DNA of 64,000 bases from Candidatus Aenigmatarchaeota archaeon (GTDB lineage: Archaea > Aenigmatarchaeota > Aenigmatarchaeia > Aenigmatarchaeales > Aenigmatarchaeaceae): assembly GCA_016933455.1 (NCBI GenBank), contig JAFGAZ010000004.1, positions 9,116-73,115 on the forward strand. Direction: 5' to 3'. The position numbers and the translations under genes are program-made. Every line of letters begins with the position of its first letter. The stretch's first letter is position 1. Under the pieces are notes generated by a model. The model was not told where the DNA came from. It saw nothing but the letters and a program-made list of their open reading frames with translations, and did no database searches. Positions 38,559 to 64,000 of the stretch are shown here, piece by piece.

Positions 38559-39005
38559 CTATTCTTCGTTCTCAAGGTAGATATAGTCTGCAACATCCTC
38601 TTCGCGCTTTGGCTGGATGTGTTCTGCCAGTTTTGCCCCAAAGTTGTTAAGCCTTCTTTCAAGGCTGAGTGTTTTCTCCGCCAGCCTGTCCAAAGAGTCC
38701 TTGTTTTCTGTCTTGTGCCTATTAAGCCTTTCCTCTAGCTGCTCCATTGCGGAATTAACGCTAACTCTTTTTACCATGTCCTTGCAGATGTTTTCCAGAT
38801 TGTCTATTTTATTCTTTATCTCTTCTCCCACCTTCTCTTCTTTCAAGGACTTTTTCCTTTCAAGCTCGACCATTGCCCCAAAGCCTATGGAATCAACTAT
38901 TAGGAGCACTATTAAAACTTGTAGAAAGTCGTAACCCAAAAGCTGCAGCGCTGCGGACACCACGGTCATGAAAATCAGTATCCAAAATGCTGTCTTGTAG
39001 GACAT
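38559..39005 (-). CDS. Membrane-anchored coiled-coil protein, 148 aa.
   Basis: Two N-terminal TM helices, then a charged coiled coil. Promoter motif aaaaggatttaaacc at 39023-39037. Confidence 0.55.
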   Translation of the reverse strand: MSYKTAFWILIFMTVVSAALQLLGYDFLQVLIVLLIVDSIGFGAMVELERKKSLKEEKVGEEIKNKIDNLENICKDMVKRVSVNSAMEQLEERLNRHKTENKDSLDRLAEKTLSLERRLNNFGAKLAEHIQPKREEDVADYIYLENEE

Positions 39006-39067
39006 GTGAAATACTACATTCCAAAAGGATTTAAACCTATTGTTATACTATCTGTAAGTGATAAATA

Positions 39068-39835
39068 TCACTTTTTGATCCTAAGTTTTCTAAGAAATCT
39101 CAAAAGCTTGCCCTCTGTTTCGTAAACCTCGCCAACAAGTTTTGAAGAAAGGCTAATTAGCTCCTTGCTTGCTGCGCTGTAGGGCTTGAATAGGACAACA
39201 GGCATCTTCAAAGTAAGGCTCTTGTGCACGTTCGTGTCATGCGGTATCTTGGCAATCACGGGAAGTTTTGTCAACTCCTCTATCTCAGAGTCGGACATTT
39301 CATAGTTCTTGTTGTTTGACATGTTAACCACTACACCCAAAGGCTTGACCCCTATCTCGTTTGCGATCTCCTGGCACCTGACAATGTCCATTACAAACGG
39401 TATGTAGGGGTTTGTAACATACAATACCTCGTCAGCAGCCCTCATTGATGCTATGCCCTCTCTTCCAAGGCCCGGGCTTCCGTCAAGAAGAACTATGTCA
39501 TTGTCGCTCATTAGGCCCTTTAGCTTGCTTCTTAGCTCTGTTATGTCAACGCCCTCCAAATCAGTTAGAGACAAAGAAGCAGGAACAACCTTCATGCCGC
39601 TGTAGTGCTCGCTTACAGCGTCCTCGACCTTGTACTCTCCTCTTAGGACCTTGTTTAGTGTTATGGGGCAATAGTACATGCCAAGATACAAACCCACGTG
39701 CGATGTTGTTACATTGCAGTCGACCAGTGTAACGTTCTTGTTAAAGTGCTTTGCAAGAGAGGCGCCTATGTTTAGACCTAATGTAGTCTTTCCAACGCCG
39801 CCTTTCCCAGAAATAATGCTTATTACCCTAGCCAT
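39068..39835 (-). CDS. MinD/ParA-family ATPase, paralogue A.
   Basis: Deviant Walker A SGKGGVGKTT, switch regions and a MinD-like body. The start is taken at MARVISIISGKGG, which avoids overlap with the upstream small ORF. Confidence 0.8.
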   Translation of the reverse strand: MARVISIISGKGGVGKTTLGLNIGASLAKHFNKNVTLVDCNVTTSHVGLYLGMYYCPITLNKVLRGEYKVEDAVSEHYSGMKVVPASLSLTDLEGVDITELRSKLKGLMSDNDIVLLDGSPGLGREGIASMRAADEVLYVTNPYIPFVMDIVRCQEIANEIGVKPLGVVVNMSNNKNYEMSDSEIEELTKLPVIAKIPHDTNVHKSLTLKMPVVLFKPYSAASKELISLSSKLVGEVYETEGKLLRFLRKLRIKK

Positions 39836-39848
39836 TACAACACCACTA

Positions 39849-40109
39849 CTATTTCTCTGGTTTCTTATCTTTTTTAACTTTTCTATTGCTTCCAAAAAGT
39901 CCGCCCAAAAAACCACCGCTTCCTTTCTTTAGAAACGGCAGCCCTGTTCTTGGGTCCTCGAAAACAACATACCCGCTGGGCACGCTGCTTAGCGCATCCT
40001 TTGGGTCCTCGGAAAAAAAGTATAGTTTTGACTTGCCTCTCATTGTCATGTGAAGCCAGAAATTCTTTTTCTTCTTGTTCTTGTAGACAAATGTTCCGAA
40101 AAGACCCAT
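39849..40109 (-). CDS. Small basic protein, 86 aa.
   Basis: ORF with GLFG/GGFLGGLFG glycine-rich motifs. Low support. Confidence 0.3.
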   Translation of the reverse strand: MGLFGTFVYKNKKKKNFWLHMTMRGKSKLYFFSEDPKDALSSVPSGYVVFEDPRTGLPFLKKGSGGFLGGLFGSNRKVKKDKKPEK

Positions 40110-40142
40110 GTTTTATAGATATTTTTTCCTTTCAATTTAAGT

Positions 40143-41366
40143 CTATGTCTCAGCTTCTTCCATTCTCAAAAGCTTGGGTTTTCTTTTATCTTTCTTCCTA
40201 TTGTGAAGCATAAGGAATATTACTGCTATTGCAATTATTACAAGCAAAAGCCAAAGAGGGCTAAAAGATGGTGCTGTGTATACCACAAAAGAAATCTGAG
40301 CCAGTTTTAAAGTGGCGTCCTTTAGTATGTCCTTTAATTCTTCCAAAGAAGAGCTTGCTGACAAATAATCCTCTTGTTCGTAAAAATTTTTGGCTTCCTG
40401 CATTTTTGCTTTGGCATTTTCTAGTTCAATTCCCACTTCAGTTGTGTCAAGGTCCTTTGCTCTGGCATCTATTATCTGCCTTTCAAGGTCTGCTATTAGA
40501 AGATCGTAATTGAGTATCGTGTTTTTCACATCATCCTTTAGAGAAACGTCGTAAGATGTCAGGTTTACTTTTATTGTGCCCGTTTCCTTGAGCTCTCTTG
40601 TTACAAGCTCAAAGTCTATTGGGTACTCGCCTATGGGCGCCTCGTTTGGCGCGAAGATGTCTAAAAGGAAAACAACCGTTTCCCCGGGGTCTAGGTAATA
40701 AGATTCCTTTGGATTCATGTCAATGTCTAAAAGGTTGGAAGCAGACAGATGCATCTTCATCTCATGGATTGTGGCGTTTCCTATGTTCTTTACCTTGATG
40801 TTGGTCATCACGCTTCTGCCAGGGTATACATTTATTGATTCGGGATAGCTGACGTTGAGCGACGGCGTGACTTCTGCCCATGTTCCAAAAGGAAAGTTTT
40901 GGGCATAAACGTACGGCGTATAATCCGGGAAAGTAGCATAGAAGCTTCCCCAAGCCTCCATTCTTTTGGTGCCCATTGTTATTCTGACTTTGATGTAATA
41001 GTATCCCATTGTGTTTGGCGTGAATTTTGTTTCAAATGGCCTTCTCATGCCTGGATAAAGAGTTACTGTCGAGTCCTGATAGTGTACCAATTCCTCAAGC
41101 TTGTCTGAATAGTAGTAGATGTACTCTTCTATTGTTAGGTCGTATGTTTCTGTTCCTGAATTGAAAAATTCTACGTAGATATCCTGGGTTTCCGATACGT
41201 TCGCCAGGGTTTCAAAGTTAAAGGCTGATATATGGCCGCTGAAATTGCTCTTTATAGCAACATCGAGCTGATGCATGGTCATGCCGGTTATCCCGTAGGG
41301 TATAAAATACGCAAGAGATGCTAGGACAATTAGCAAAACAAGAATGTGCAGCCAAAACTCTCTCAT
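40143..41366 (-). CDS. Membrane-anchored surface protein, 407 aa.
   Basis: N-terminal TM/signal, extracellular beta-rich body with N-X-S/T sequons and a coiled coil, C-terminal TM (LWLLLVIIAIAVIFLML), and a basic tail. Confidence 0.6.
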   Translation of the reverse strand: MREFWLHILVLLIVLASLAYFIPYGITGMTMHQLDVAIKSNFSGHISAFNFETLANVSETQDIYVEFFNSGTETYDLTIEEYIYYYSDKLEELVHYQDSTVTLYPGMRRPFETKFTPNTMGYYYIKVRITMGTKRMEAWGSFYATFPDYTPYVYAQNFPFGTWAEVTPSLNVSYPESINVYPGRSVMTNIKVKNIGNATIHEMKMHLSASNLLDIDMNPKESYYLDPGETVVFLLDIFAPNEAPIGEYPIDFELVTRELKETGTIKVNLTSYDVSLKDDVKNTILNYDLLIADLERQIIDARAKDLDTTEVGIELENAKAKMQEAKNFYEQEDYLSASSSLEELKDILKDATLKLAQISFVVYTAPSFSPLWLLLVIIAIAVIFLMLHNRKKDKRKPKLLRMEEAET

Positions 41367-41398
41367 ATAAACTAATTTGAGCCTCAGATATAAAACCC

Positions 41399-41998
41399 TT
41401 AATATTTTTTGTATAACAACAACGCAATCGCAATGGTTGCTATGACCAAGATAAATACAATGCTGCTCTCTTCTTTGTCTTCATAATTTTCCTTTGGTAT
41501 GATAATTTCTTCTTCAAAGTCATCTTCTACAACATCAGGCTCGATTCCTCTTAGTCCTACTTTTAAGATGAAGCTGTTTTTTGGAACCATTGTTAGCTGT
41601 CCTGTGTCCTGAGATGTTATCTGAGAAACTATTGTAAAGGAATAGTTGCCGCTTTCCTCGTTTTGCGGCGGCTTTACGAAAACATTTACTATTTTTGCCC
41701 TTATGTTTTCATTCATATACGGCAGGCTTATGTATTCCTCTCCTGTTTCCTTGTCAAGCAAAAATGAAGCAGGGTCTATTATTACTGTCCAACCTTCCGG
41801 GCTTTCAACATTCCTTATTTCCATCGTGTAGGGCTCATTTCCAGAATTCCAGAAAAGTATCTTGAACCTTGCAGATTGCTCCAAAGCTATTTCCTGATAA
41901 TCGTACTTTAGGCTGTTGCCTATGCTTATCGCATTTGCGCAGCAGGCTAGTGCTAGGAAAAAAAATGCAAAAAACATGCTAAGGCGCTTCTTGTCCAT
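41399..41998 (-). CDS. Secreted protein, 199 aa, with a C-terminal TM anchor.
   Basis: Signal peptide (FFLALACCANA) and C-terminal IVFILVIATIAIALLLYKKY. Confidence 0.55.
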   Translation of the reverse strand: MDKKRLSMFFAFFFLALACCANAISIGNSLKYDYQEIALEQSARFKILFWNSGNEPYTMEIRNVESPEGWTVIIDPASFLLDKETGEEYISLPYMNENIRAKIVNVFVKPPQNEESGNYSFTIVSQITSQDTGQLTMVPKNSFILKVGLRGIEPDVVEDDFEEEIIIPKENYEDKEESSIVFILVIATIAIALLLYKKY

Positions 41999-43310
41999 TT
42001 TTTACCCCCCAAACATATATGCTTCCCGCATAGTAACCAGTGTATACTGGCGGAACATTGATCCAATACCAAGAAGTTATGTTACTGCCTTCTGAAAATC
42101 CAGAGCCTAGAAGACTTGCTGTTTTTGATAGTTCATGGGCTTCGGAAAAATCATTTGTTGTATTGCTCCAGCTTATGTTCGAAACGCCTATCGTATATCC
42201 TAACGTTTCGTTTGTCAAGTCGGTTCCGTTTATGTATATATCCAAATTGCAGCTGCCCTCGTTGACTGTCACGTTGTAGTCGTTTATGTCATTTCCCTCC
42301 GCGCTGTTCTGTCCGGAGCTAGGGTCAAGCATACCGAAAATTATAGAACTCCATTGCATGTTGATATCTATTGTGCAGTCGCTGATAGAGATTGTCACGT
42401 TTTCAGTTGCATTGTCTTCCACTTCGTCAAAGGAAGAGTTGAACATTGCTCCTATTTTCCATCCGCTGTTTATGTCTGCAGTTGCGTTTATCGACCAGTT
42501 GACAAGACAAAAATCCCCTGATAGCATGCTCCCGCAAGGCTTTAGAGGATTCAAAGGGCTTTCGTTTACAAAGAAGGGCTTGTCTCCAAAAGTATCGTTC
42601 ACAGGATAATTAGGGTATTCTGATGAAAGGTTGTACATTACTGTTCCAAAAACATTGCCGCAAGGGCCGTCTCTGCAAACAATGGACGTGTTTACGAAAA
42701 ACGTCTTGTTTTGTATTATGTTAAGAGTTGCTTGTGTGTCTGGATTTAGCATCTCAACTTCTAGATAGCTTGCATAACCTACATAGTACTGCACATAGTC
42801 CTCCTTTAGAAGACCCACATCCGAATCCCCTGTGGAGTTTATCTTGAATCTGATTCTTCCATCGGAAGAGTTAAAGTCCATTGCATTGCTTGTTATGTTG
42901 CACCACCATTTTGTAGGAGTGTTTGGGGGAACTGTGCCAAAGTCACATCCGGAAGATACCCACAAAGAGTTTTCCCAGTCGTACACGTTCAAGCTGTAAT
43001 CATCCGAAACATTGCTTGTAAAGTTTATCGTGATGTTTATCGAATCTATGCTGCCATCAGCTATCTGAGTCGAGTTGTGCCATATGTCAACAAAATTGCT
43101 TCCTGTTTTGAACTCTTCCTCTATGTCGTATGTCAAATCCTCTCCAAGAATGTTTAGGTCTTCATAATCGCCTGTTGGCGTAAGGCCTATGTCAACTAGC
43201 GGCTCTCCTTCCTGGTCGTATTGTACTGTAACTTGGGCAAAAGCAAAAGAGCTGTTGCTTAGAACCAGCAATAAAATTAAAAACAGAGTCGCTTCGGTTT
43301 TTGATGGCAT
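41979..43310 (-). CDS. Secreted surface protein rich in sequons, 443 aa.
   Basis: Signal peptide and very dense N-X-S/T sites (NSS, NIT, NFT, NVS and others). It overlaps the next gene by 20 nt. Confidence 0.6.
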   Translation of the reverse strand: MPSKTEATLFLILLLVLSNSSFAFAQVTVQYDQEGEPLVDIGLTPTGDYEDLNILGEDLTYDIEEEFKTGSNFVDIWHNSTQIADGSIDSINITINFTSNVSDDYSLNVYDWENSLWVSSGCDFGTVPPNTPTKWWCNITSNAMDFNSSDGRIRFKINSTGDSDVGLLKEDYVQYYVGYASYLEVEMLNPDTQATLNIIQNKTFFVNTSIVCRDGPCGNVFGTVMYNLSSEYPNYPVNDTFGDKPFFVNESPLNPLKPCGSMLSGDFCLVNWSINATADINSGWKIGAMFNSSFDEVEDNATENVTISISDCTIDINMQWSSIIFGMLDPSSGQNSAEGNDINDYNVTVNEGSCNLDIYINGTDLTNETLGYTIGVSNISWSNTTNDFSEAHELSKTASLLGSGFSEGSNITSWYWINVPPVYTGYYAGSIYVWGVKNGQEAP

Positions 43311-43319
43311 AGAAATACC

Positions 43320-44096
43320 TCAGGCGAACTCTTTTTTCCTTTTGAAAGCCATCTTTACCTTGTCCCAGAAACTGTAACTGTAGTCGTGTCCCGCTATCTT
43401 GGCAGCCAGCTTAAAGAAGGCCTGTTGCGACGGTGATTTCTTTTTTGATGAGGCAACTAGCTCCTTTTTGTTAAAGCTTGCCAAAACCTCTTCGTCTTCT
43501 GGAACATACCCTATTATCGGCATTTCTAAAAACTGCTGTATCTCTTCCATGGTCAATTCGTACTTTTTGTTTCTGACCCTGTTGACAATTACACCTAGTA
43601 ATGTCGGACGTATCTGGAACTTTTCTATCACATGCTTGCACTTTTCTATGTCAACCAAAGACGGTATGAAAGGGTTTGCGACAAAAAGCGTCTCGTCGCT
43701 TGCCTGCAGAGCTATCATGGCCTCCTTGCCAAGGCCCGGAGCAGAGTCTAAAATAACTATGTCGTAATCCGCAAACACCTGCTTTAATTTTTCCTTAATG
43801 CCGCTGACATCAATGTTAACTATGTCGTCTAGTCTTAGGGATGCTGGCACAACGTTAAGGCCTGATTTGTGCTTGTATATGGCGTCTTCAAGCTTAACCT
43901 CGTTTCTCAAAAAATTGTTTAGTGTTAGAGGGCACTTGTACATGTCAAAGTAAAGACCTATGTGTGACGTTGTTATGTTAAAGTCTATAACAGCCACTTT
44001 CTTGTTATATTTCTGGAGTGCCACGCCCAGATTGGCGGCTATCGTGGTCTTTCCTACCCCTCCTTTGCCAGAGCACACGTTTATTATTCTTACCAT
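43320..44096 (-). CDS. MinD/ParA-family ATPase, paralogue B.
   Basis: CSGKGGVGKTT Walker A, collinear with paralogue A. Its start overlaps the stop of the upstream 783-aa gene (44096-44099). Confidence 0.85.
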   Translation of the reverse strand: MVRIINVCSGKGGVGKTTIAANLGVALQKYNKKVAVIDFNITTSHIGLYFDMYKCPLTLNNFLRNEVKLEDAIYKHKSGLNVVPASLRLDDIVNIDVSGIKEKLKQVFADYDIVILDSAPGLGKEAMIALQASDETLFVANPFIPSLVDIEKCKHVIEKFQIRPTLLGVIVNRVRNKKYELTMEEIQQFLEMPIIGYVPEDEEVLASFNKKELVASSKKKSPSQQAFFKLAAKIAGHDYSYSFWDKVKMAFKRKKEFA

Positions 44097-44098
44097 TA

Positions 44099-46450
44099 TT
44101 AATCACCTTTTTGCGTCAAATTTTTGGAAAATTTCAAAACATTGGGAAATTCCGTTATTATGAGCTTGTCATAGCTTCCTGTGTTTGGATGCATGGGCTG
44201 ACCGTCGGTGCTCATGTATTTCCTAACACCTATAAGGAAACTCCTTATCTCTCCCCTGTTGCTGAACTTTTTTCTTTTTTTTAGCAGTATTGCAAGCGAA
44301 AAGCAAACTGCCGCGAATATTCCCACGAATGCCAGTTCATAGTAGCTTATTTGCGGTAGTGTAAAGCCTGTTGCAAGACCTGTTGTGGGAACTGTTTCTT
44401 GCTCGCCAGTTTCAAAAACATTAAGGCCAAATACCAGCTCTTGTGTAATTTCATTGTTTTCAGATTTCAAAGTCACGCTTCTTATGCCGGTTTCCATGTA
44501 AACAGGGATCGAAATATCCAATGTTATATCCCTGCTTTCTCCTACTTTGAGACTTATCGTATCGGGTTGAAGAGTGTAATAGTCCTGTGAAATGCCCTCC
44601 AAGTAAAGCAGCATTTCGGTTAGGTCATCTTGTCCGTCGTTGACTATCGTAAAATTATAGCTGCTGCTTCCACCCCTTTCTATTCTGACAGTCTCTGGAA
44701 AGTCGATGAAAACTGATTTGCTCTTTACAACTGAAATTTTTGTTTCTCCATTGAAAGCGCTGTAGGGCTCCTTTCTTGCATCAACTGATACAACATATTC
44801 TGCCTCGTTTTTTGGAACGTCAAGCTCCACGGAAAACACGCCGTTGTCGTCGGACTTTACTGTTATGCTTTCCTGCGTGTTTTTTATGGCGACAAAAACT
44901 GTGGTGTTTCCGACAACATCTCCGTCCTCATCCTTTGTTATTCCCGACACCTTTATTGTTTCGTCCAGATTGTACTCTTTCTTGTCCGTGCTAAATACCG
45001 ATTTTAGACTCTTGACCTCGCCTATTACGAACGCTGAAAGACCTGAAGCTGTTATTCTAACATTGTTTCTTATCATGTCTATGTCGTATCCGATCTCTTC
45101 CCATTCGTCACTGCATGCTTGCTTTCCCATGCTCCAGTCCGAGCATCTAAACACCTTTAGCTCATCCTCGTCTATCACATTGCCTTCGTCATAGTCCATT
45201 TCCAATTCCAGTGTTGAATAGTCAAGACCTATCTCGTAGCCGTATAGGCCGGCGTTTCTTATGCCGGGTATTTCTGTTTCGTCGCCGTAAAAATAATTTA
45301 TAGGATCGTCAAATTCGCTGAGCGTCACGCTTGAGAGTTCAATTTGGGATTTAGGAAAGTCAATGACTATGTCGTAAACTCCTGGAGGCAAAAGTCCTCC
45401 GTATTTGCCGTATGCGTCTGTTGATACTGTCAGCTTGTTTATATCGTTCTGATTGAACTTTATCTTGGTGCTTATGGCTTTGTTGTTTTCATCAACCAAC
45501 TCGCCGTCAATGACTACAGCGTATTCTATCTGCTTGTTTGCAGAATAAGTTTTCGATTCGTGGCTCATGCTGGCTTCTAACTGATAGCTTCCAGGCGAAA
45601 GCGGCGGGGCCATGATGCTAATAACATAGTAATTCCCCTGCAAGGAAAAGCCCGTTACATCAGCAGAGGTTCCACCGATTTTTATTCCAATATCGTTCTG
45701 GTCTAGGCTTATCATGTTTCCCTTGTCCATAGCCAATACGGAGACTGTTATGTTGTCCTTGCTCTTAATCCACGTCTTTGATACTGAAGCTATCTCAAAT
45801 TCAATGCTGTTTCTTACGTCAGCAGAGCCATAGTCGGTTACTGATGCCCCCTCATAGAACATAGTGACACTAACATCGTAAACATCGCGTGTTCCTGGAG
45901 TGTCAAGCTTTAGTATCCACCCTCTTGTGATGTCGTATGCAGGAACAACCTTGAGATTTTTCAAAACACCGTCAAGCGTCACGTTGAACAAGACATCATG
46001 CGTTATTCTTGCACCATCTTTCTCTGCTACAAAGTCTATCTCTATTGTGTCGCCTATGTATGCTGGCACCGGTCTTATGTCGCCTATGTATCCTGACAAG
46101 CTAGAAACCGTAAAGCTGCTTGCTTGGCTTGTGATATTGCTGACATTGTTTTTGCAGTATACGGTCACATCATATGTTCCAATCCTGTCTAGATACGCCT
46201 CGCTTAAAGACAGCTGATAGTTTATGTTCCCTGAAAAATAAAGTATAGGCAGCAATATTTCTGGACCTTCTATTTGGGCATACACCTGTTCTATTGACAT
46301 GTTAGCATTGTCAGTGCACAAAAGTTCCATGTCAACGCTTGTTCCAATCCAAGGATTTTGCGGGTCTATCGAAAAGTCTTGTATGACTGGCATTGCAAAA
46401 GCCGCGTTAACGGAAAGCAAAAGTATGACTAAGGGCAGGAGTTTTTTCAT
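44099..46450 (-). CDS. Large surface protein, 783 aa: signal peptide, repetitive Ig-like beta domains, a TM anchor and a cytoplasmic tail of about 60 aa.
   Basis: MKKLLPLVILLLSVNAAFA signal, TM FVGIFAAVCFSLAILL followed by KKRKK, then a soluble tail immediately before the MinD gene. Confidence 0.7.
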   Translation of the reverse strand: MKKLLPLVILLLSVNAAFAMPVIQDFSIDPQNPWIGTSVDMELLCTDNANMSIEQVYAQIEGPEILLPILYFSGNINYQLSLSEAYLDRIGTYDVTVYCKNNVSNITSQASSFTVSSLSGYIGDIRPVPAYIGDTIEIDFVAEKDGARITHDVLFNVTLDGVLKNLKVVPAYDITRGWILKLDTPGTRDVYDVSVTMFYEGASVTDYGSADVRNSIEFEIASVSKTWIKSKDNITVSVLAMDKGNMISLDQNDIGIKIGGTSADVTGFSLQGNYYVISIMAPPLSPGSYQLEASMSHESKTYSANKQIEYAVVIDGELVDENNKAISTKIKFNQNDINKLTVSTDAYGKYGGLLPPGVYDIVIDFPKSQIELSSVTLSEFDDPINYFYGDETEIPGIRNAGLYGYEIGLDYSTLELEMDYDEGNVIDEDELKVFRCSDWSMGKQACSDEWEEIGYDIDMIRNNVRITASGLSAFVIGEVKSLKSVFSTDKKEYNLDETIKVSGITKDEDGDVVGNTTVFVAIKNTQESITVKSDDNGVFSVELDVPKNEAEYVVSVDARKEPYSAFNGETKISVVKSKSVFIDFPETVRIERGGSSSYNFTIVNDGQDDLTEMLLYLEGISQDYYTLQPDTISLKVGESRDITLDISIPVYMETGIRSVTLKSENNEITQELVFGLNVFETGEQETVPTTGLATGFTLPQISYYELAFVGIFAAVCFSLAILLKKRKKFSNRGEIRSFLIGVRKYMSTDGQPMHPNTGSYDKLIITEFPNVLKFSKNLTQKGD

Positions 46451-46665
46451 TTTCTTTCCCTCCTTGGAACCATGTATATATTGGACCTGCCCACTTTGTG
46501 CAGTTCGAGCTTGCCCTGGTTTTTTAGAGCTTCAAGATAACCTGCTGCAACATCCCTTCTCATGCCGAGCTTTTTGGCTATCTGCGATACTGACAGCAGC
46601 TCCTGTCCAAGAATGTCTAGAACCTTTTTCTCGAAATCCGCCCCTGTAAGCCCCTTTTCAGCCAA
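46447..46665 (-). CDS. Small winged-helix transcriptional regulator of about 72 aa. A TTG start is proposed. The tracked ORF 46447..46809 reads an N-terminal extension through an AT-rich spacer.
   Basis: wHTH LLSVSQIAKKLGMRRDVAAGYLEALKNQGKLELHKVG. The tracked N-terminus is low-complexity Y/I/S-rich and has no other Met. Its stop overlaps the 783-aa gene start. Confidence 0.5.
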   Translation of the reverse strand: MAEKGLTGADFEKKVLDILGQELLSVSQIAKKLGMRRDVAAGYLEALKNQGKLELHKVGRSNIYMVPRRERK

Positions 46666-46771
46666 ATAAACACTCTTCCATATTGCAACTATATAGATAT
46701 CATATAAATTTGATATAAATACTTTTCTGTATACATATGAATACAATATAGACGCAATATAGCACAAAGAA
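46666..46771. promoter_or_regulatory. Repeat-rich AT spacer inside the operon, a candidate internal promoter or operator for the wHTH gene.
   Basis: Direct repeats TCATATAAAT/TGATATAAAT (46712-46741) and CAATATAG twice (46754-46774). Confidence 0.35.
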
Positions 46772-47521
46772 CTAGTTGAAAATAGCGTACTTGATGCTGT
46801 CTGTGACAAAGAAATACAAGCCTACAAGACCATCAAGCTTTTTCATTTCAATTGTTTCTTCCGTATAGTACTTGCCGTTATCAGAAGCTATCAATAGCTT
46901 TACAGAAGAGGTCGCCCAAAGAGACGGCACATATCTTATCATGACGTACTTTGAACTGTTGGTTTTTATTTTGTCTATTACTTTCTGTTCGAATATCCAT
47001 CCCGACATATAGTCGGTTGGCATTATGACAATGTCTTGAACATCTGCGTTTGCTATCACATCGAAAAGCACATAGTCGTCGTATGTCCTGAAATTCCTTA
47101 TTGAGAATACATCTTCTTGTTGCGTTTTGTTTTCCACAACAAATTCCACATTCTTGTACTCGCTCACCTCGTTTCCGAAATAAATCTTTAGTTTCGATAA
47201 GTAAACGCCCGGGTTCAAAGTGTGCCAGTATATGTCAAGAACCTTCTTGTCGCCAGGATAGAATTCCTCTTCAAGGCTCCAGCCGCTGAATATCGTTTTT
47301 TGGTTGTTGTCTTGTATTTCTATCTTTGCTCTTGCCTTGTATGGAACGCTTCCTGTGTTGTAGAATTCAGATGAAAACTTTACAAGATTTGACCCTTCTG
47401 TTGAGAATGCTATTAACCTGCCATCAACAATTTCCGACACGCCCACATCTATTGATGCAGCGTATGCTACGCATACTGAAACAAGCATACAACCTACCAG
47501 TATCAAAGAACCCTTCATCAA
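46772..47521 (-). CDS. Secreted protein, 249 aa.
   Basis: Signal peptide (LILVGCMLVSVCVAYA). Its start abuts the stop of the upstream gene (47521/47522). Confidence 0.6.
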   Translation of the reverse strand: MMKGSLILVGCMLVSVCVAYAASIDVGVSEIVDGRLIAFSTEGSNLVKFSSEFYNTGSVPYKARAKIEIQDNNQKTIFSGWSLEEEFYPGDKKVLDIYWHTLNPGVYLSKLKIYFGNEVSEYKNVEFVVENKTQQEDVFSIRNFRTYDDYVLFDVIANADVQDIVIMPTDYMSGWIFEQKVIDKIKTNSSKYVMIRYVPSLWATSSVKLLIASDNGKYYTEETIEMKKLDGLVGLYFFVTDSIKYAIFN

Positions 47522-48019
47522 TCAGACTATGACAGGAAAATTATAAATAGGTTTCTTGATGATGACATCTATTTCTCCTGAATAGAAATCTGCAATTTCA
47601 TTGCTTGTAAATATTATGCTAACAGAGGTTTTCTCTTCCGGATTTAGCAAAATGTTGTTTTTGCTAAACGACACGTGATTTGATATGTTTCCATAAGCTT
47701 TCAGGATTATTTCGACGTCGTGTTCATTCGAATTTGACAAATCGACTGTTCTTGTGGAATAGCTGCCATTTGCAGGTACTGCCCCGAAATTTATGTTCCA
47801 GCTTTCAGTTGCAAAGCCAAGTGTTATAGTGCTGTTTGTCTGGCCCGATGTCACCTCAACGCAAGAAGGATACCTTATTATGTCATAGTTAAAGAAGATG
47901 TTCGAATAATTGTTCACAGTCGTGTTAGATACTGTTTCCTGAGGTTCAGGGGGTTCAAGCATATTGGCTAAAAGTATGAAAACCACCACAAATGCCAAAA
48001 GCATGGTTTTTAGGTTCAT
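47522..48019 (-). CDS. Secreted protein, 165 aa.
   Basis: Signal peptide. Its start overlaps the upstream stop (48016-48019). Confidence 0.55.
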   Translation of the reverse strand: MNLKTMLLAFVVVFILLANMLEPPEPQETVSNTTVNNYSNIFFNYDIIRYPSCVEVTSGQTNSTITLGFATESWNINFGAVPANGSYSTRTVDLSNSNEHDVEIILKAYGNISNHVSFSKNNILLNPEEKTSVSIIFTSNEIADFYSGEIDVIIKKPIYNFPVIV

Positions 48020-48945: not shown

Positions 48946-48986
48946 AAGATTTTATTGTGGCTATAACAATATAATAATATTTATAT

Positions 48987-49009
48987 AGCGGGTTAATGAA
49001 AATAATATT
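48987..49009. promoter_or_regulatory. Inverted repeat GGTTAAT-n9-ATTAACC in the divergent promoter gap between 48945 (-) and 49022 (+).
   Basis: Read directly as ggttaatgaaaataatattaacc. Confidence 0.35.
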
Positions 49010-49021
49010 AACCTTATATGG

Positions 49022-55823: not shown

Positions 55824-56306
55824 CTATTCTAAACCGAAAATGTCGAATTGCACGTTGCTTTTCATGTAAGAAGAAGCCATGTAGTATTCCCCTGCTGTTA
55901 TTGAGCTAAAGCCAAATAACATCATCGGATATGCTGCAATTCCAAGGCTTGCCAAACCCATGTCCAAGGCGCTGAAAATAAAGGATAGCCCGAAAACCAC
56001 CATGAACATGTTCCTTCCCGGTGTTTTCATTGACAGGAAAAGAAGACCAAAACAAGAAGTCATCAAAAGGCCGCTAAGATAAAAAAGAGTCTGGTTCATG
56101 CCGTTTGCGCATATCATTTCAGTGTAAGGCCCCTCCAGCATGGAATTCAAAAGAACTGCCTTTCCCTGCTCGCAACCCATAAGATAGCCTGCCCCAAGAT
56201 GTGTTATTTCGTGTATAGATATTAGTGCGAAAAACACTGTCACATTGAGCAATATTATACTTAATATTTTCCTTTTCATGGGCTCACGAGAAGTAGTTAA
56301 ATACAA
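55824..56306 (-). CDS. Small polytopic membrane protein with an HExxH motif, a putative intramembrane metalloprotease.
   Basis: IHEITHLGAGYLMGCE lies at the end of the first TM helix, with four to five TM helices overall and 160 aa total. Confidence 0.5.
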   Translation of the reverse strand: MYLTTSREPMKRKILSIILLNVTVFFALISIHEITHLGAGYLMGCEQGKAVLLNSMLEGPYTEMICANGMNQTLFYLSGLLMTSCFGLLFLSMKTPGRNMFMVVFGLSFIFSALDMGLASLGIAAYPMMLFGFSSITAGEYYMASSYMKSNVQFDIFGLE

Positions 56307-56332
56307 AATTATTTAAACCCATTACGAAAAGG

Positions 56333-56629: not shown

Positions 56630-56950
56630 CTATTTCTTCCCCTTTGCCTTCTTCTCTTTTTTCACAGCACTGCATTCCTGCTTCTCAACCTCGCTTTTTA
56701 TGTTGACTAGCATGTCCACATTGGTTTTCAGCAGCGTCTTTATGCTCTTTATTATGCTTACGCTTTTTCTTTTCAGGCTCTTTTCGTTTGCATTGAATTT
56801 GTTTTTTGAAAGCCTGCCGCGTTCAAATTCCTTGTTATTTTGGTATATCGAATTTAGCATGCCTTCTAGCTCGGTTTGAAGAATGCTTATTTCGAACGAA
56901 TTCTCGAAAATTTGTCTTGCTGTTTCCTCGATTCTTTTTTGGTTAATCAT
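56630..56950 (-). CDS. Small helical protein, 106 aa, with a SHOCT-like motif.
   Basis: ERGRLSKNKFNANEKSLKRK segment. Its stop abuts the next gene's start (56629/56630). Confidence 0.5.
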   Translation of the reverse strand: MINQKRIEETARQIFENSFEISILQTELEGMLNSIYQNNKEFERGRLSKNKFNANEKSLKRKSVSIIKSIKTLLKTNVDMLVNIKSEVEKQECSAVKKEKKAKGKK

Positions 56951-56954
56951 GAAA

Positions 56955-62100: not shown

Positions 62101-64000
62101 CCTCATAGACTATGGAATTGTATTCTATATCTGACCTGACGTTGTAATATGTTCCGTTGTGGAAACCAGTGATGTTTAGGTTGTAAACTCTTCCTGTGCT
62201 AAGGTTAGGCGCTATGAAATCTATTTCCCAGGCATTATGAGGAACGCTATAGTCTTGGTTGTTAATTGTAGCGTTTGTTGATATTGTGTCGTTGAATATA
62301 ACAACTTCGAATGTAACGTTTTCTGTTATCATGCTAGAGTTCTGTGTTACATTGACCCATGTCTCTATGTTGTCTCCGACATTTACGTCAATTTCTGGAA
62401 CGCTTTGTGTCGGGGAAACTATGTTAACATTGTATGGTGTTACAAACAGTGTGACTTCTGTTGAAACTTCCTTTACACTTGCGTTCTCCCTCATTGCGCC
62501 TGTTATGTTAGTTGTTATGAAACCTGTGTAGTTGGCATCGTATGTTATGTTCGGCGATGAGTAGTTTATGGTTATGAAGCTGGAATTGCCGTACTGGGAA
62601 GTTATATTGTAGCTGTCAAGCGTTATGTAAGGAGATATGGTTCCGTTTACTGTTACGTTCAAGCTCATGTTGGCGTTTCCGGTGTTTATGATTTCTATCT
62701 GACCAAACTGTCCCTGCGTCCCGTCCTTGACCCTTTGCACTATTTCCGTCGGGTCGTGTATCCAAGATACGTTTGCCGGAACTAGTATGTAAACCGGCAT
62801 CTCCCTGTAGAACGATGGCTGCGTGTAATTATCCGACCAGCTTATGTTCATGGTGCCGTTGTATGTTCCTGTCTGATAGTTCGAAGGAACTGTTAGCGTT
62901 ATGTTGAATGTCGACGAGTTTCCTATCTCAAGCAATGACACGTTCTGTGGTTCGTAATCAATAGTAAAGTTCTCGCATACTTCGCCTGATGTACATTCAA
63001 TGCTTATGTTGGTTGCGTTGACGTTTCCAATTGATGTCAAAGTCAAGTTTGTTGTCTTAGGCGTTCCTGCCCAGGCGACCTCTGATATCTGGCTCTTTGA
63101 AACTCCTATGAACGGATTTGCCGTTACGTTTACAGGAAGGCTGTAGACGCTGGTGTTATTAGAGTTGTTTAGGTTGACCCACTGGCTTGTGAAATTCACA
63201 TAATATGTCCCTGGAACAGTTGAGCTGTCAACACTAATTGTTGTTATGTTGTATTCTGCCTCGTTCTTGAGCAGTGTTCCGAACTGGAAGTATGTGGGGG
63301 TTGCGCTTGTGTTGTTGGAATAGTTCAAAGATACATTCACTTCGTGTGCTCTGGAACCTCCAAAGTTGCTTGCAGAAAAGTTTATAGCAAAGCTCTGTCC
63401 GCTTACCTGCGTTATGTTGGTCGCGTTTATTGTGGTAACATTTGGCACTATTGTTATCTCGGTCGTGTCAGAGCTTGTGACGTTAACAGGGTCTGTGCAC
63501 GTTGTCAGCGTTTGTGTATCGTTTGCGCATATTATTATCTGGTGCAGTCCTGCCACCGGATATTCGTATGTGATATTGAAGCTGTCGTTGTGTGTATTTA
63601 TCATGGGCAGTATGAAGCTAGAGCTGTTTGGTGGAGTTATGTTTACCCATGCATGGCTAACAGCATAGTTGTCTGTTATGTTGGCTTCTATTGTGACGTT
63701 CTCATACCCTTGCTCGAATGCTAGCGGGTCAATAACAACATCATCTATGACCGGAGGTATGTCTGTTACGTTGAGTGTGAAAGTCACATTCTGGCTTGCC
63801 GGGTCTGCTGTTACGTTTCTTATCAGAAGCGTTACATTATACAGTCCGTCTGTCACAAAGTCTGGAACAGTGTATGATATGTTTATGTTTCTGCTAACCT
63901 GCTTCTCAAGGTCGAAGCTGTACCAGTTAACTCCCTCTATTCTAACATAGCCGTTGTCTCCTGATTTTGTCACTTCGAACGGTATCTTTACGTTTCCTAT
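59162..64000 (-). CDS. Fusion protein of at least 1612 aa whose N-terminus runs off the window. More than 1100 aa of extracellular adhesin-like, sequon-rich domains with a Gly/Thr linker are joined through one TM helix to a C-terminal cytoplasmic HerA/VirB4-like (DUF87, FtsK-HerA superfamily) ATPase.
   Basis: Walker A AAGGTGSGKT, followed by IIVFDPTAQW (the HerA 'FDPHGEY' position) and Walker B LLLVYDEVH (HerA 'EEAH'). TM WILILLKSIFLNWITYVVLLGG. The ectodomain shares the CxxGxVCxNFT module with the 1951-aa protein. The frame stays open to the window edge, and the tracked start is a GTG. Confidence 0.8.
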   Translation of the reverse strand: MGNVKIPFEVTKSGDNGYVRIEGVNWYSFDLEKQVSRNINISYTVPDFVTDGLYNVTLLIRNVTADPASQNVTFTLNVTDIPPVIDDVVIDPLAFEQGYENVTIEANITDNYAVSHAWVNITPPNSSSFILPMINTHNDSFNITYEYPVAGLHQIIICANDTQTLTTCTDPVNVTSSDTTEITIVPNVTTINATNITQVSGQSFAINFSASNFGGSRAHEVNVSLNYSNNTSATPTYFQFGTLLKNEAEYNITTISVDSSTVPGTYYVNFTSQWVNLNNSNNTSVYSLPVNVTANPFIGVSKSQISEVAWAGTPKTTNLTLTSIGNVNATNISIECTSGEVCENFTIDYEPQNVSLLEIGNSSTFNITLTVPSNYQTGTYNGTMNISWSDNYTQPSFYREMPVYILVPANVSWIHDPTEIVQRVKDGTQGQFGQIEIINTGNANMSLNVTVNGTISPYITLDSYNITSQYGNSSFITINYSSPNITYDANYTGFITTNITGAMRENASVKEVSTEVTLFVTPYNVNIVSPTQSVPEIDVNVGDNIETWVNVTQNSSMITENVTFEVVIFNDTISTNATINNQDYSVPHNAWEIDFIAPNLSTGRVYNLNITGFHNGTYYNVRSDIEYNSIVYEDEAAPLIDVEIPIRVPVNSSVCIGANITESGGLKNITASMKLPDNTTQNITLILKSQTPDVYSYGFNFSNTSQLGNYTFNITSCDLSNNCNASSDNFEIYPIVLFSGYTKDIENILDPVINVNFTFYDYDTNDIRSNFSSNLTTGYYNETIDSKVYDIVISTSGDAFDNSIKLYNSNISINYNNSVSFGKIPTVRTSSTVLKGFYVNNTLPFENATIIIDFSECLNSACGFPIIDPNHLGIYKYTGNWTNKVSSTDNSLFSRLSNTDMDNGDDSVNLTSLEARINVSDITGVYVLAEFICGDGECESNYGETTSNCPTDCLYVPPTPTNPITGGGAGGGGGGSGSGTSTTTQTGVDVNIVPLEVRSTIIETTLTPGEQKTFSTDIINNLDEDVTVSIVVEGPVFNLLTIQRPSFRLNGKTTESVSIRAQAPLTAVPGIYTGNIVVTAGDVEHTTPVTITVREVLEPLMDVQVKVLSESINPGTNLTFETTLLNMGETAEINDITVTYTVRPLNGPDEIITTNTETLAVENVLTFKRTVQIPENTPEGMYLIDTNVSYWDGNKYASSSDDFEVTKLPWILILLKSIFLNWITYVVLLGGVPSLLVGLRWYAAFKASKTAKARYIAPLDFKALPKEGADSLLVGRIAETDIKSYIPIPQLLMHSIAAGGTGSGKTVSAMVTAEELLKRKVPIIVFDPTAQWTGFMKPNTLKPMLAMYPKFGLKPSDATRFKTNVILVEDGDMEINIKKYMKPGEITVFVMNRLSASENDKFVRRSIQEIFDMRPTESKEIKLLLVYDEVHRLLPKYGGKKGYTAIERAAREFRKWGIGIFMISQVLLDFKGAIRANIANEIQLRTKYEGDIGRVKSKYGSDYASKVTRLTIGTGLFQNPEFNHGRPWFVNFRPLLHSPFALTDKEIDTYMTLDKKVKALEEKIEKLKAQKVDTYDIEIELNIARDKVKTAAFKMAETYLDSLEKRLERMSK

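Follow-up and report, generated by a model that had tools for sequence, protein, structure and literature searches.

The 64,000-nucleotide stretch of Aenigmatarchaeota DNA analysed here (the window) carries a gene module that is conserved across DPANN lineages. A SPEARE-type giant with an ATPase domain is followed by a coiled-coil partner (CC), by a second giant of about 1,950 amino acids (GIANT-2) and by a MinD, with or without an M50-like protease. As judged from homology, the block corresponds in Aenigmatarchaeota to the SPEARE locus of giant proteins known from salt-loving nano-archaea. The statement of the initial annotation that the combination matches no described archaeal system was thus wrong, its core being a SPEARE-type giant (Hamm 2019, PMC6642349; Reva 2023, PMC10266531). 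The module across DPANN lineages is apparently new, and a literature search found no mention of the CC partner or of the linkage to MinD and GIANT-2.

Gene order was compared in 87 related loci. The CC core lies directly downstream of the ATPase gene in 80 of the 87, and in 73 of the 75 loci having at least 1.5 kb of flank. Co-occurrence at the locus was 31/45 for GIANT-2, 21/45 for MinD and 11/45 for the HExxH membrane protein, and unbiased clustering of the neighbours recovered identical families. This recurrence across DPANN, the check on which the initial annotation had staked its proposal, favours a functional module. The pair of ATPase and CC alone is universal: loci of Micrarchaeota, Parvarchaeota, Woesearchaeota and of the cultivated Ca. 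Nanohalococcus occultus have neither GIANT-2 nor MinD within 10 kb.

Table 1. Features of the locus (positions in the window; z, excess of N-X-S/T sequons)
Feature	Position	Strand	Remarks
SPEARE-type giant, C-terminal 1,613 codons	59162..64000	minus	ORF open at base 64000; sequon-rich Ig-like/NPCBM_assoc repeats, TM (~60314-60370), FtsK/HerA-superfamily ATPase (~59340-60240), C-terminal three-helix coiled coil (~59165-59340); z 11.8
CC, 736 aa	56955..59165	minus	TM-less, cytoplasmic; 4-nt overlap with ATPase gene
Mini-paralogue, 106 aa	56630..56950	minus	single SHOCT-like motif copy
Mini-paralogue, 98 aa	56333..56629	minus	single SHOCT-like motif copy
HExxH membrane protein	55824..56306	minus	small, polytopic; three hydrophobic segments
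GIANT-2, 1951 aa	49927..55782	minus	N-terminal hydrophobic segment, ectodomain, TM, cytoplasmic tail; z 12.8
p299, 299 aa	49022..49921	plus	secreted, sequon-rich; N-terminal hydrophobic segment; z 5.2
Insertion between GIANT-2 and MinD-a	39849..48945	minus	~10 kb, lineage-specific
p309	48016-48945	minus	in insertion
p165	47522-48019	minus	in insertion; PapD/ASH-like Ig domain
p249	46772-47521	minus	in insertion
wHTH	46447-46809	minus	SoFic-like_C E 1.9e-5, under its cut-off
p783	44099-46450	minus	in insertion
MinD-b	43320-44096	minus	TIGR01969 minD_arch 236.1 bits (curated cut-off 201.75)
p443	41979-43310	minus	in insertion; z 6.4
p199	41399-41998	minus	in insertion
p407	40143-41366	minus	in insertion
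p86	39849-40109	minus	in insertion
MinD-a	39068..39916	minus	TIGR01969 minD_arch 208.8 bits (curated cut-off 201.75)
148-aa protein	38559..39005	minus	2 TM + coiled coil; after MinD-a

Minus-strand ORFs fill the region from 38559 to the window edge, save the p299 gene. A 20-nt overlap is seen at 41979/41998, with further tight junctions at 44096/44099, 46447/46450, 47521/47522 and 48016/48019. The co-oriented locus initially described is therefore real as to its junctions and its nearly uniform strand. Its start at 38559 was not retained, because the minus-strand run continues down to ~31.5 kb, including the L1, L10 and AlaRS genes. The plus-strand gene interrupts the run; as this gene is convergent with the 1951-aa giant, the block comprises at least two transcription units. 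Otherwise, the listed anatomy of the module is largely real, with corrections on ATPase length, sequons, strand and strength of the SHOCT assignment. At least nine proteins had been credited with a very high N-X-S/T density. Measured against a composition-preserving shuffle, an excess was found for four (p443, p299, GIANT-2 and the ATPase-fusion; Table 1), the remaining secreted proteins being at shuffle expectation.

Reva et al. (2023, Front Microbiol, PMC10266531) re-annotated the SPEARE giants of Nanohaloarchaeota (SVXNc_0300 and BNXNv_0298, with the 623-aa SVXNc_0299 next door) as Ig-like repeats followed by a TM, a VirB4/TraG-like ATPase and a coiled coil. Hamm et al. (2019, PNAS, PMC6642349) had already noted SPEARE relatives in Aenigmarchaeota. 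In their size fractionation, the SPEARE ectodomain was recovered separately from the TM-cytoplasmic part, which is compatible with proteolytic processing. With N. occultus SVXNc_0299 and SG9 AQV86_02330, the ATPase region of the window shares 42-43% identity over 373-387 aa (E 1e-108 to 1e-111), in an alignment spanning TM and coiled coil, and the window ATPase-fusion matches the SVXNc_0300 giant at the C-terminus of the latter with an E of 6e-104. In both systems, a huge Ig-like ectodomain rich in sequons is joined by one TM to a cytoplasmic ATPase that ends in a coiled coil. In N. occultus, as in the window, a CC homologue (512 aa, L089:11917-13455, E 6e-15) follows the ATPase gene. However, N. 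occultus carries two tandem ATPase copies, the giant and the 623-aa protein, with no GIANT-2 or MinD within 10 kb, whereas the window locus has one fusion together with CC, two minis, the M50-like protein, GIANT-2 and two MinDs.

The fusion of an ectodomain to a HerA-type ATPase, as initially annotated, was confirmed. The length of 1603 aa was not, since the ORF is open to base 64000 and only a fragment of it is seen; the corresponding ORF of 40 related loci reaches at least 3,700 aa and is open at the flank edge there too. Pfam matches were obtained with DUF87 (31.7 bits, cut-off 23.2), HerA_C (26.2 bits, cut-off 22) and NPCBM_assoc. The TM obeys the positive-inside rule and the ATPase is predicted to be cytoplasmic. 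Protease, laminin-G or toxin domains were not detected by Pfam in the ~1,200 aa of ectodomain lying inside the window, the N-terminal part being beyond it. Walker A, Walker B, a REFRKWG motif and an SQ motif are invariant across 16 homologues, and the catalytic motifs, including the Arg-finger region and the sensor Gln, are intact. In the species-representative collection, relatives are encoded on at least 592 genome stretches; the best 80 come nearly all from DPANN, with 53-92% identity over ~410 aa.

In an AF2 model (pLDDT 86), the ATPase most resembled Sulfolobus HerA (Foldseek, 4d2i, E 1.9e-11), a hexameric DNA translocase; anti-phage HerA, the coupling protein TcpA and FtsK came next. The modelled fold is thus nearest to the HerA, FtsK and TcpA DNA translocases, apparently a new observation. 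HerA, FtsK and type IV secretion coupling proteins share with it a P-loop core with Walker A/B, Arg-finger region and sensor Gln; an N-terminal TM segment likewise tethers the motors of FtsK and the coupling proteins to the membrane. In contrast, sequence identity to these proteins is just 13-19%, the scores lie far under the NCBIfam cut-offs for HerA, CedD, TraC and TraB, no NurA partner accompanies the window ATPase, and the N-terminal barrel of HerA was not detected. Among these proteins, only the window ATPase forms a fusion with a giant extracellular domain and has a dedicated coiled-coil partner.

This partner, CC, consists of a ~320-aa conserved all-helical core, a SHOCT-like helix-turn-helix motif of 40 aa that flanks the core in three copies, and two KKGFFxxLFGKK amphipathic motifs. 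The KKGFF motif occurs in 16 of 80 CC ORFs versus 1 of 4200 other ORFs. AF2 predicted helices throughout with a low pTM, and the model of the core gave no informative structural match. The repeated motif is common to CC and both minis, as the initial annotation of a scaffold with two mini-paralogues had it. The SHOCT label is weak: a single copy matches the Pfam family, below its cut-off (E 0.0034, 17.5 bits versus 27). Homologues of the minis hold the equivalent position in 10 loci of the nearest Aenigmatarchaeota relatives. Searching with the motif gave 156 matches at i-E <= 0.01 and 0 in reversed sequences. The matches are confined to CC, the C-termini of GIANT-2, the minis, five unlabelled ORFs, four of which adjoin an ATPase or CC gene, and one MinD, which is fused directly to SHOCT-like motifs in an Altiarchaeota locus. 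In 28 loci, the motif forms the last ~40 residues of GIANT-2, 0-7 residues from the C-terminus. The suggestion that the scaffold is linked to surface-protein tails thereby gains support at the level of sequence. This network of motifs in CC, GIANT-2 tail, minis and Altiarchaeota MinD is apparently new, no mention of it having been found by literature search. Coiled-coil proteins (CCPs) beside type-IV-pilus-like CpaF/TadC loci have been described in DPANN (Hamm et al. 2023 preprint, 10.1101/2023.02.24.529834). Like CC, they are DPANN-wide and encoded beside an ATPase system of the membrane, and a role in host interaction has been proposed. CC is set apart by its neighbourhood, a HerA-type ATPase instead of CpaF/TadC, which the locus lacks.

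GIANT-2 begins with a signal or anchor segment, followed by a sequon-rich beta-sandwich ectodomain, a helical stalk, a TM (residues 1850-1868) and a cytoplasmic tail of ~90 aa with the SHOCT-like motif at its end. It matches NPCBM_assoc and MG2 in Pfam, and the 1951-aa giant of the initial annotation was confirmed, as a surface glycoprotein. Orthologues of 1,908-2,103 aa were found in 31 loci, mostly directly after CC; that of locus L002 is 53% identical. A p299 homologue occupies the matching convergent position beside GIANT-2 in 7 loci. The HExxH gene is present in 19 of the 87 loci. An alignment of 18 family members shows invariant H32, E33, H36, C45, T62, C66, G106, D115 and E140, and 11 of the 18 match Peptidase_M50B (best E 1.6e-7) or M50. 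The protein, rightly picked out at first as an HExxH intramembrane protein, resembles a pared-down intramembrane metalloprotease of the M50/M50B (site-2-protease-like) kind.

The two paralogous MinDs recognised initially both exceed the NCBIfam curated cut-off. They show a deviant Walker A (SGKGGVGKTT in MinD-a) and a basic amphipathic C-terminus; the true start of MinD-a is likely the Met at ~39835. The MinDs found after GIANT-2 in ~20 loci (L031, L038-L088) reach 207-323 bits with MinD-a but 163-253 bits with MinD-b. MinD-a is thus the orthologue of the MinD encoded after GIANT-2 in many DPANN loci. MinD4 and MinD2 of Haloferax volcanii are reportedly MinD paralogues that position envelope machines. 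To our knowledge, the archaeal MinDs studied to date position motility and chemotaxis machinery, not the division site. Like them, the window MinDs are bona fide minD_arch proteins encoded beside envelope-spanning components. However, no archaellum or chemosensory genes are present, and the partners are the SPEARE-type giant and GIANT-2. We know of no fusion of a SHOCT-like motif to a Haloferax MinD, unlike the Altiarchaeota case. Synteny and this Altiarchaeota fusion argue for a link of MinD to the locus. The specific tie to the short tails of p783 and p407, encoded before MinD genes, found no support: these tails have no common motif, and most such proteins are found in 0-3 loci. By a rough estimate, a MinD would lie within 10 kb by chance in only a few percent of ~1-Mb genomes. 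MinD could also be a mere neighbouring housekeeping gene in tiny genomes.

Overall, the locus probably encodes parts of one envelope-spanning, MinD-associated attachment or transfer complex; the module is a candidate machine for host-cell contact. The ATPase would form a hexameric ring in the membrane, so that the ectodomains are bundled as a long stalk or an adhesin. CC would lie under the membrane, held there by its KKGFFxxLFGKK motifs, and would cross-link ATPase rings to GIANT-2 tails via motif-motif oligomerisation. MinD, a membrane-binding dimeric ATPase, would cluster or position the assembly, as MinD4 reportedly does at Haloferax polar machines, and the TM-anchored giants may be processed by the M50-like protease. 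We infer that the ATPase motor powers extrusion or transfer, most likely by translocating a polymer through the membrane of the symbiont where contact is made. The first guess would be DNA, since the closest structural relatives of the ATPase are all dsDNA translocases; the guess draws solely on fold similarity. The presence of one TM helix per ATPase subunit leaves no obvious polymer channel and counts against the translocation reading.

It is rather unlikely that the cluster instead serves the envelope and division of the cell itself, GIANT-2 and the ATPase-fusion forming an S-layer-like coat while ATPase, MinD and CC act in chromosome segregation or division-site placement and not in host interaction. 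The locus is set amid ribosomal and RNA-polymerase genes, the ATPase domain is near-universal and unusually conserved across DPANN, and MinD_arch is annotated as a cell-division ATPase. The striking constancy in length of GIANT-2 fits a lattice or ruler protein, and its signal peptide, glycosylated ectodomain and C-terminal TM are typical of archaeal S-layer architecture. However, a division DNA pump has no need of a fast-evolving ectodomain of several thousand residues, several lineages lack GIANT-2 near the ATPase, and Ca. Nanohalobium constans reportedly lacks the giant. The roles given above for Haloferax MinD4 and MinD2, away from the division site, also speak against it.

For the homologous nanohaloarchaeal proteins, the published interpretation is a type IV secretion-like "straw", in which the Ig-like repeats bind the host and the VirB4/TraG-like ATPase exports effector proteins (Reva et al. 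2023, PMC10266531). Type IV coupling proteins do belong to the FtsK/HerA superfamily, TcpA is the rank 28 fold match (E 1.7e-8), and some homologues are annotated with Pfam T4SS-DNA_transf or TrwB_AAD_bind. We nevertheless regard this reading as improbable. No VirB4 structure was found in the top 50 fold matches, CagE_TrbE_VirB was detected neither in the window protein nor in the Pfam annotation of SVXNc_0299, and NCBIfam TraC scored 18 bits versus a cut-off of 567. VirB2, VirB6 or VirB8-like genes are missing from the conserved neighbour families. Consistent with the initial annotation, no pilin, archaellum or type IV secretion families were found by Pfam among the scanned window ORFs.

A chance pile-up of surface genes, or an anti-phage or conjugative island built on HerA, can hardly be the case: HerA-type ATPases are common in defence systems (PADLOC HerA matches here are weak, best E 6e-12), the middle 10 kb are poorly conserved and the giants figure among the organism-specific regions given by Reva et al. 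(PMC10266531), but this reading is largely refuted because of synteny, gene order being kept in dozens of genomes from various DPANN phyla, and one motif is common to three gene products, no integrase, nuclease or Sir2 partner was found at the locus, GC equals that of the rest of the window with housekeeping genes as neighbours, and NCBIfam anti-phage HerA scores 28 bits versus a cut-off of 850.

The ~10 kb between GIANT-2 and MinD-a are a lineage-specific insertion of accessory surface proteins with a duplicated MinD, MinD-b. Its products mostly combine a signal peptide with beta-sandwich domains, several having a C-terminal TM (Pfam, topology). Each gene was found in 0-3 of the 87 loci, and the set of MinD, p309, p165, p249, p86 and p783 only in L021. 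Matches of p407 elsewhere land on the C-terminal part of GIANT-2. The embedded wHTH regulator proposed initially exists as an ORF, with weak support from its sub-threshold match (Table 1). Finally, the 148-aa protein has no sequence homologue in the 87 loci. A gene for a ~87-aa TM and coiled-coil protein, of an ORF family seen in 6 loci, follows MinD-a in L042 and L053; the 148-aa protein may be its positional analogue, its membership of the module being uncertain.

DPANN archaea need physical contact with host cells. For the molecules that make this contact and move material, SPEARE proteins are the foremost candidates, but they have been discussed mainly as single nanohaloarchaeal giants. 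In BLASTP, the ATPase region of the giant ATPase fusion of the window was 42% identical to SVXNc_0299 of Ca. Nanohalococcus occultus (387 aa, E 2e-108) and 43% identical to AQV86_02330 of nanohaloarchaeon SG9 (373 aa, E 1e-111), the alignments spanning the sequence from the TM segment to the final coiled-coil helix. The same region matched the C-terminus of the 9,409-aa SVXNc_0300 with phmmer (E 6e-104). Thus, the conserved intracellular C-terminal homology that defines SPEARE proteins is found in the window fusion by both methods. Their topology is found as well, with a mostly extracytoplasmic protein, a TM segment near the C-terminus and a cytoplasmic C-terminal domain: a hydrophobic segment at residues ~1202-1230 is followed by a basic stretch, a long TM helix is visible in the AF2 model, and the part upstream of the TM is sequon-rich (z 11.8 versus composition-preserving shuffles). 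The third feature, thousands of residues with tandem Ig-like/adhesion domains, is also observed. The window ORF has 1,613 codons and is a fragment, because it is still open at the window edge, base 64000; in 40 loci, the orthologous ORF runs to 3,700 aa or more and is still open at the edge of the 10-kb flank. Pfam matches of the fusion correspond to NPCBM_assoc, RbmA-like FnIII and GH123_N beta-sandwich domains.

No serine protease, laminin-G or toxin-like modules were detected with Pfam in the visible 1,200 aa of the ectodomain, the N-terminal part of the giant being outside the window. These modules, part of the original 2019 definition of SPEARE proteins, are disputed by Reva et al. 2023 even in the type proteins (PMC10266531). 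The giants described by these authors measure 8,880 and 9,409 aa and comprise ~75 Ig-like domains, a TM, a 'VirB4/TraG-like' ATPase and a coiled coil; Reva et al. take them to be the SPEARE proteins that Hamm et al. 2019 described (PMC10266531; PMC6642349). According to Hamm et al. 2019, conservation in SPEARE proteins is highest in the intracellular part, and similar sequences occur in Woesearchaeota, Aenigmarchaeota, Micrarchaeota and Altiarchaeales (PMC6642349). Judged by sequence, the window locus is a SPEARE-type locus. Therefore, with 42-43% identity to SPEARE-locus ATPases, the view of the initial annotation that no described archaeal system is matched by the locus has to be given up.

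A labelling discrepancy was also seen. The locus tag AQV86_02330 has 3,315 aa in the legend to Fig. 7 of Hamm et al. 2019 versus 625 aa in the database record, and a 655-aa version is also mentioned in the paper (PMC6642349). In the contig ranges of L009-L088, among the 87 related loci compared, many MAG contigs start a mere 1.5-2.9 kb upstream of the locus as extracted, and MAG assemblies seem often broken inside the giant gene or near its start; published MAG annotations therefore give a 'partial' protein of 400-700 aa. An exact-protein look-up retrieved the same genes on the metagenome contig Logan SRR13394437; for MinD-b, the only exact match was a 21-kb Logan contig ending within the gene of the second giant, GIANT-2.

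Hundreds of relatives of the TM-ATPase-coiled-coil region, annotated as DUF87, DUF853 or HerA-like, were found in Aenigmatarchaeota, Micrarchaeota, Nanohaloarchaeota, Altiarchaeales, Woesearchaeota, Pacearchaeota and MAGs labelled Nanoarchaeota. When one genome per species was scanned, at least 592 genome stretches encoded a relative. The best 80 of these show 53-92% identity over ~410 aa and are nearly all from DPANN archaea; the two exceptions are carried by 3-4 kb contigs and are probably mis-binned. The top named relatives belong to Candidatus Aenigmatarchaeota MAGs, the closest being 92% identical (contig JAZDKZ010000004.1).

Walker A, Walker B, an Arg-finger region, a sensor Gln, profile matches and the fold together place the ATPase in the FtsK-HerA superfamily. 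An alignment of 16 sequences shows no variation in Walker A, Walker B, REFRKWG and SQ (G99, G102, G104, K105, D228, E229, R251, R254, K255, S264, Q265). The fusion scores 31.7 bits with DUF87 (cut-off 23.2) and 26.2 bits with HerA_C (cut-off 22). An AlphaFold2 model of the TM-ATPase-coiled-coil region (pLDDT 86) gave the Sulfolobus HerA hexameric DNA translocase 4d2i as best PDB fold match in Foldseek (E 1.9e-11), followed in order by anti-phage HerA proteins, the TcpA conjugative coupling protein and FtsK motors. The HerA/FtsK-like fold agrees with the sequence searches, in which YjgR and HerA were the top PDB matches. Of the ectodomain fused to a HerA/VirB4-like ATPase that had been proposed, the DUF87/HerA_C domains and the HerA fold stand, whereas the VirB4 features do not and the ORF is incomplete.

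More specific identities were rejected. With NCBIfam, the HerA DNA-repair helicase proper was excluded (HerA_Thermprot 31.7 versus a cut-off of 800, helicase_HerA 19 versus 970 bits), and no NurA-like family was found among the conserved neighbour families clustered from the ORFs of 80 loci. A VirB4/type IV secretion identity was discarded (no PF03135 match; TraC 18 bits versus a cut-off of 567 in NCBIfam). VirB4 structures were absent from the top 50 Foldseek matches in the PDB, and VirB2/6/8-type genes from the window ORFs scanned and the conserved neighbour families. The Ced/Ted DNA-import ATPase was excluded too (CedD 32.4 bits versus a cut-off of 600 in NCBIfam, over the Walker A region only), and Pfam detected no CedA-like genes among the window ORFs scanned. 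The score with NCBIfam TraB was far below cut-off.

The gene following the giant encodes CC, a coiled-coil partner of 736 aa without TM, which has two relatives of ~100 aa, the minis, in the window. A CC core is found directly downstream of the ATPase in 80/87 loci, and in 73 of the 75 loci whose flank measures 1.5 kb or more, including Altiarchaeales, Micrarchaeota and MAGs labelled Nanoarchaeota. In the cultivated N. occultus, the CC homologue is a 512-aa gene (E 6e-15), which is not discussed by Reva et al. 2023 (PMC10266531). The CC core was modelled as all helices (AF2, pTM 0.33), and a Foldseek search of the PDB with it was uninformative, giving just generic coiled-coil matches (E at least 0.3). 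A ~110-120-aa protein was noticed beside CC in several lineages (L089:13433-13759 in N. occultus, L007:3573-3899, L006:11131-11499). It carries a Zn-ribbon and a C-terminal TM in N. occultus, a Zn-ribbon in Micrarchaeota and, in Altiarchaeales, hydrophobic stretches (by eye) with a charged C-terminal half; it may be a lineage-variable small partner, like the window minis.

A motif HMM was built from six ungapped 40-aa instances, three from CC and one each from the GIANT-2 tail and the two minis. At i-E <= 0.01, it gave 156 hits across the loci versus 0 in reversed sequences. CC accounts for 110 hits, located both before and after the core, and the mini-paralogues for 12; in 28 loci the motif lies within the last 0-7 residues of GIANT-2. 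It was also found in one 452-aa MinD of an Altiarchaeota locus (L074) and in five unlabelled ORFs, four of which directly adjoin an ATPase or CC gene and probably represent fragments of CC. No other hits occurred in the loci. AlphaFold2 models the motif as a helix-turn-helix (pLDDT 78-90). Only one of six motif-bearing sequences matched Pfam SHOCT (PF09851; E 0.0034, 17.5 bits versus a cut-off of 27); the other five scanned gave no match. These sequence comparisons indicate that the motif is real and specific, and SHOCT-like rather than a SHOCT domain. Of the SHOCT scaffold with two mini-paralogues suggested in the initial annotation, the TM-less protein and its small relatives are thus retained, the SHOCT assignment being sub-threshold and limited to one copy.

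One or two copies of KKGFFxxLFGKK are present in CC of the Aenigmatarchaeota clade (16/80 CC ORFs versus 1/4200 other ORFs). Because this motif is near-palindromic, the reversed regex is an invalid control and specificity was judged from the other ORFs. In the window CC, KKGFFSRLFGKK and KKGFFKKMFGKK occupy residues 124-135 and 217-228 (window 58500-58800). These CC motifs resemble KKGFLKRLFGG, the amphipathic helix that targets E. coli MinD to the membrane. A related motif, GGFLGGLFG, is located near the C-terminus of p86, just upstream of MinD-a.

The 1951-aa GIANT-2 was confirmed. It begins with a hydrophobic segment, contains the beta-sandwich domains NPCBM_assoc and MG2, and has a tail of ~90 aa behind a TM at residues 1850-1868; a sequence search of the PDB gave no match. 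Its orthologues are near-constant in length (1,908-2,103 aa in 31 loci), and it follows CC in 31/45 loci with full flank. The two paralogous MinD ATPases were confirmed as archaeal MinD, MinD-b with 236.1 and MinD-a with 208.8 bits versus the TIGR01969 cut-off of 201.75, and both carry the deviant Walker A SGKGGVGKTT. A MinD lies within 10 kb in 21/45 loci with full flank, a lower bound since in the window MinD-b and MinD-a are situated 5.8 kb and 10 kb past GIANT-2. The MinD following GIANT-2 is of the MinD-a type in ~20 loci, mostly from more distant lineages.

In locus L074 (Candidatus Altiarchaeota MAG, JAUXGB010000008.1), the 452-aa MinD (5378-6736) has a SHOCT-like C-terminal extension with one motif copy by HMM and a second recognised by eye. 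Ahead of this MinD lies a 596-aa 'mini GIANT-2' that, by eye, appears to end with the same motif, and a MinD-a-type MinD follows directly at 6739-7530. A ~220-aa cytoplasmic family lies between GIANT-2 and MinD-a in 11 loci from more distant DPANN (for instance L042:18878-19537 and L053:18985-19656), where a small TM and coiled-coil protein follows MinD-a (for example L042:20375-20638). Neither has a sequence homologue in the window, in which p148 may be a positional analogue of the latter.

The intramembrane HExxH protein was likewise recovered, as a three-TM protein whose gene occurs in 19 of the 87 loci searched. In an 18-member family alignment, HExxH in the first TM, Asp (D115) and Glu (E140) in later TMs and two Cys are invariant. 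Peptidase_M50B or M50 is matched by 11/18 members (best M50B E 1.6e-7), the window protein itself reaching 13.2 bits for a cut-off of 26; the family profile had no match among PDB sequences. Its sequence features make a minimal site-2-protease-like enzyme plausible. In the work of Hamm et al. 2019, the SPEARE ectodomain and the TM-cytoplasmic part were detected in different size fractions (PMC6642349), which would fit processing by such an enzyme. The mini-paralogues occur in 10 of the 87 loci, all closest relatives.

The ORFs of the 87 loci were searched with every window protein, and those of 80 genome-scan loci were clustered without reference to the window. The neighbourhood is conserved: the giant is commonly followed by CC, then a small-gene set, GIANT-2 and MinD-a. 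The small-gene set consists, by lineage, of minis and HExxH or of MinD and HExxH. The window is an expanded version: most genes at 39.8-49 kb were found in just 0-3 of the 87 loci, and ~10 kb of lineage-specific surface-protein genes with a duplicated MinD are inserted before MinD-a. Pfam, NCBIfam and PADLOC gave no match for CC, the minis, p148, p86, p443, p199, p249, p309 or p299. Of at least nine proteins initially credited with very high N-X-S/T density, just four exceed composition-preserving shuffles (z 5.2-12.8), the other secreted ones being at expectation. The embedded wHTH regulator corresponds to a small winged helix, with weak hits only.

The minus-strand stack and its tight junctions were reproduced from the ORF map and translations, but the block is not uniform. 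The p299 gene is convergent with the GIANT-2 gene and separated from p309 by a 76-nt divergent intergenic region at 48,946-49,021, so that the block comprises at least two transcription units. Minus-strand genes continue downstream via L1, L10 and AlaRS; thus 38559 is no strand boundary.

Coordinates of the locus genes and of other features of the window
Feature	Position	Strand	Remarks
ATPase fusion	59162-64000	-	ectodomain-TM-ATPase-coiled coil
CC	56955-59165	-	
Mini, 106 aa	56630-56950	-	
Mini, 98 aa	56333-56629	-	
HExxH protein	55824-56306	-	
GIANT-2, 1951 aa	49927-55782	-	
p299	49022-49921	+	
p309	48016-48945	-	
MinD-b	43320-44096	-	
p86	39849-40109	-	
MinD-a	39068-39916	-	
p148	38559-39005	-	
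ORF of 499 aa	33954-35453	-	no Pfam match; AlaRS directly downstream
Alanyl-tRNA synthetase (AlaRS), 584 aa	32107-33861	-	catalytic core and SAD
ATP-cone, Mrr-type restriction-endonuclease catalytic domain and AF1548-like C-terminal domain protein	27424-28248	+	adjoins tRNA-Gln
tRNA-Gln	27318-27391		tRNA scan
Eukaryotic-type DNA topoisomerase IB	11273-13009	-	Pfam Topoisom_I_N, Topoisom_I, Topo_C_assoc, E down to 8e-64
CAP (cysteine-rich secretory protein) family domain protein	9162-10064	-	

Several observations bear on a possible mechanism: the SPEARE-locus homology, an intact HerA/FtsK-type motor that one TM links to a giant glycosylated ectodomain, the near-universal CC neighbour, the recurrent linkage of GIANT-2, MinD-a and the M50-like protein, and a motif in CC, the GIANT-2 tail, the minis and one MinD. 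The motor may hexamerise like its relatives, which would bundle six ectodomains into a stalk. CC could be a sub-membrane scaffold coupling motors to GIANT-2 tails via the motif, and MinD, by analogy with Haloferax MinD4 and MinD2, might position or cluster the assembly. At host contact, the motor would move a polymer, most plausibly DNA. It is possible, though we consider it rather unlikely, that the locus represents a DPANN-wide unrecognised envelope machine combining motor-stalk fusion, motif wiring, host bridge and polymer pump. A hexameric HerA/FtsK-type motor would be covalently fused to a multi-thousand-residue Ig-repeat stalk, and the SHOCT-like motif would wire it to the CC scaffold and the second giant and, in Altiarchaeota, to MinD itself. 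Such a machine would form the contact or bridge between symbiont and host, across which it would pump DNA or some other polymer. If true, this would be the long-sought uptake apparatus of auxotrophic nano-archaea.

Alternatively, the module may be a housekeeping coat and division system, in line with its high conservation, the constant GIANT-2 length and the housekeeping neighbour genes, whereas the giant ectodomain is hypervariable and the giant is reportedly absent from Ca. Nanohalobium constans. The T4SS-like effector 'straw' of Reva et al. 2023 (PMC10266531) is weakened, as neither VirB4 features nor T4SS partners were found. Chance neighbours or a defence island are largely refuted by the conserved synteny. 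A defence system was also rejected in PADLOC, which gave weak partial HerA matches without partner genes.

Overall, the comparison suggests that the ATPase-CC pair is near-universal in DPANN and part of a larger module with a second giant, MinD and an M50-like protease, and that a cytoplasmic interaction motif is common to module parts. This module picture leads to testable predictions on binding partners and on what localises the complex, and makes the motor a HerA/FtsK-type translocase where VirB4 or a restriction enzyme had been assigned. The centrepiece belongs to a kind of protein that has already been described, to which the window adds a new, expanded member. In open-access papers and bioRxiv, literature on DPANN with DUF87, HerA, or MinD and surface yielded no description of the module, and the system is also absent from the 'dark matter' review of Makarova 2019. 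Within this literature, three points appear undescribed: the near-universal CC partner, GIANT-2, MinD-a and M50-like protease as a module; the motif network including the MinD fusion; and the motor as HerA/FtsK, replacing VirB4 or restriction enzyme.

The window as a whole is archaeal chromosomal DNA and encodes ribosomal proteins L1 and L10/P0, alanyl-tRNA synthetase, topoisomerase IB and tRNA-Gln, the latter being the only hit of Rfam and tRNA scans and lying outside the locus. GC content is even (0.38-0.44). The alanyl-tRNA synthetase may be split or shortened, and the CAP family seems unexpected for an archaeon.
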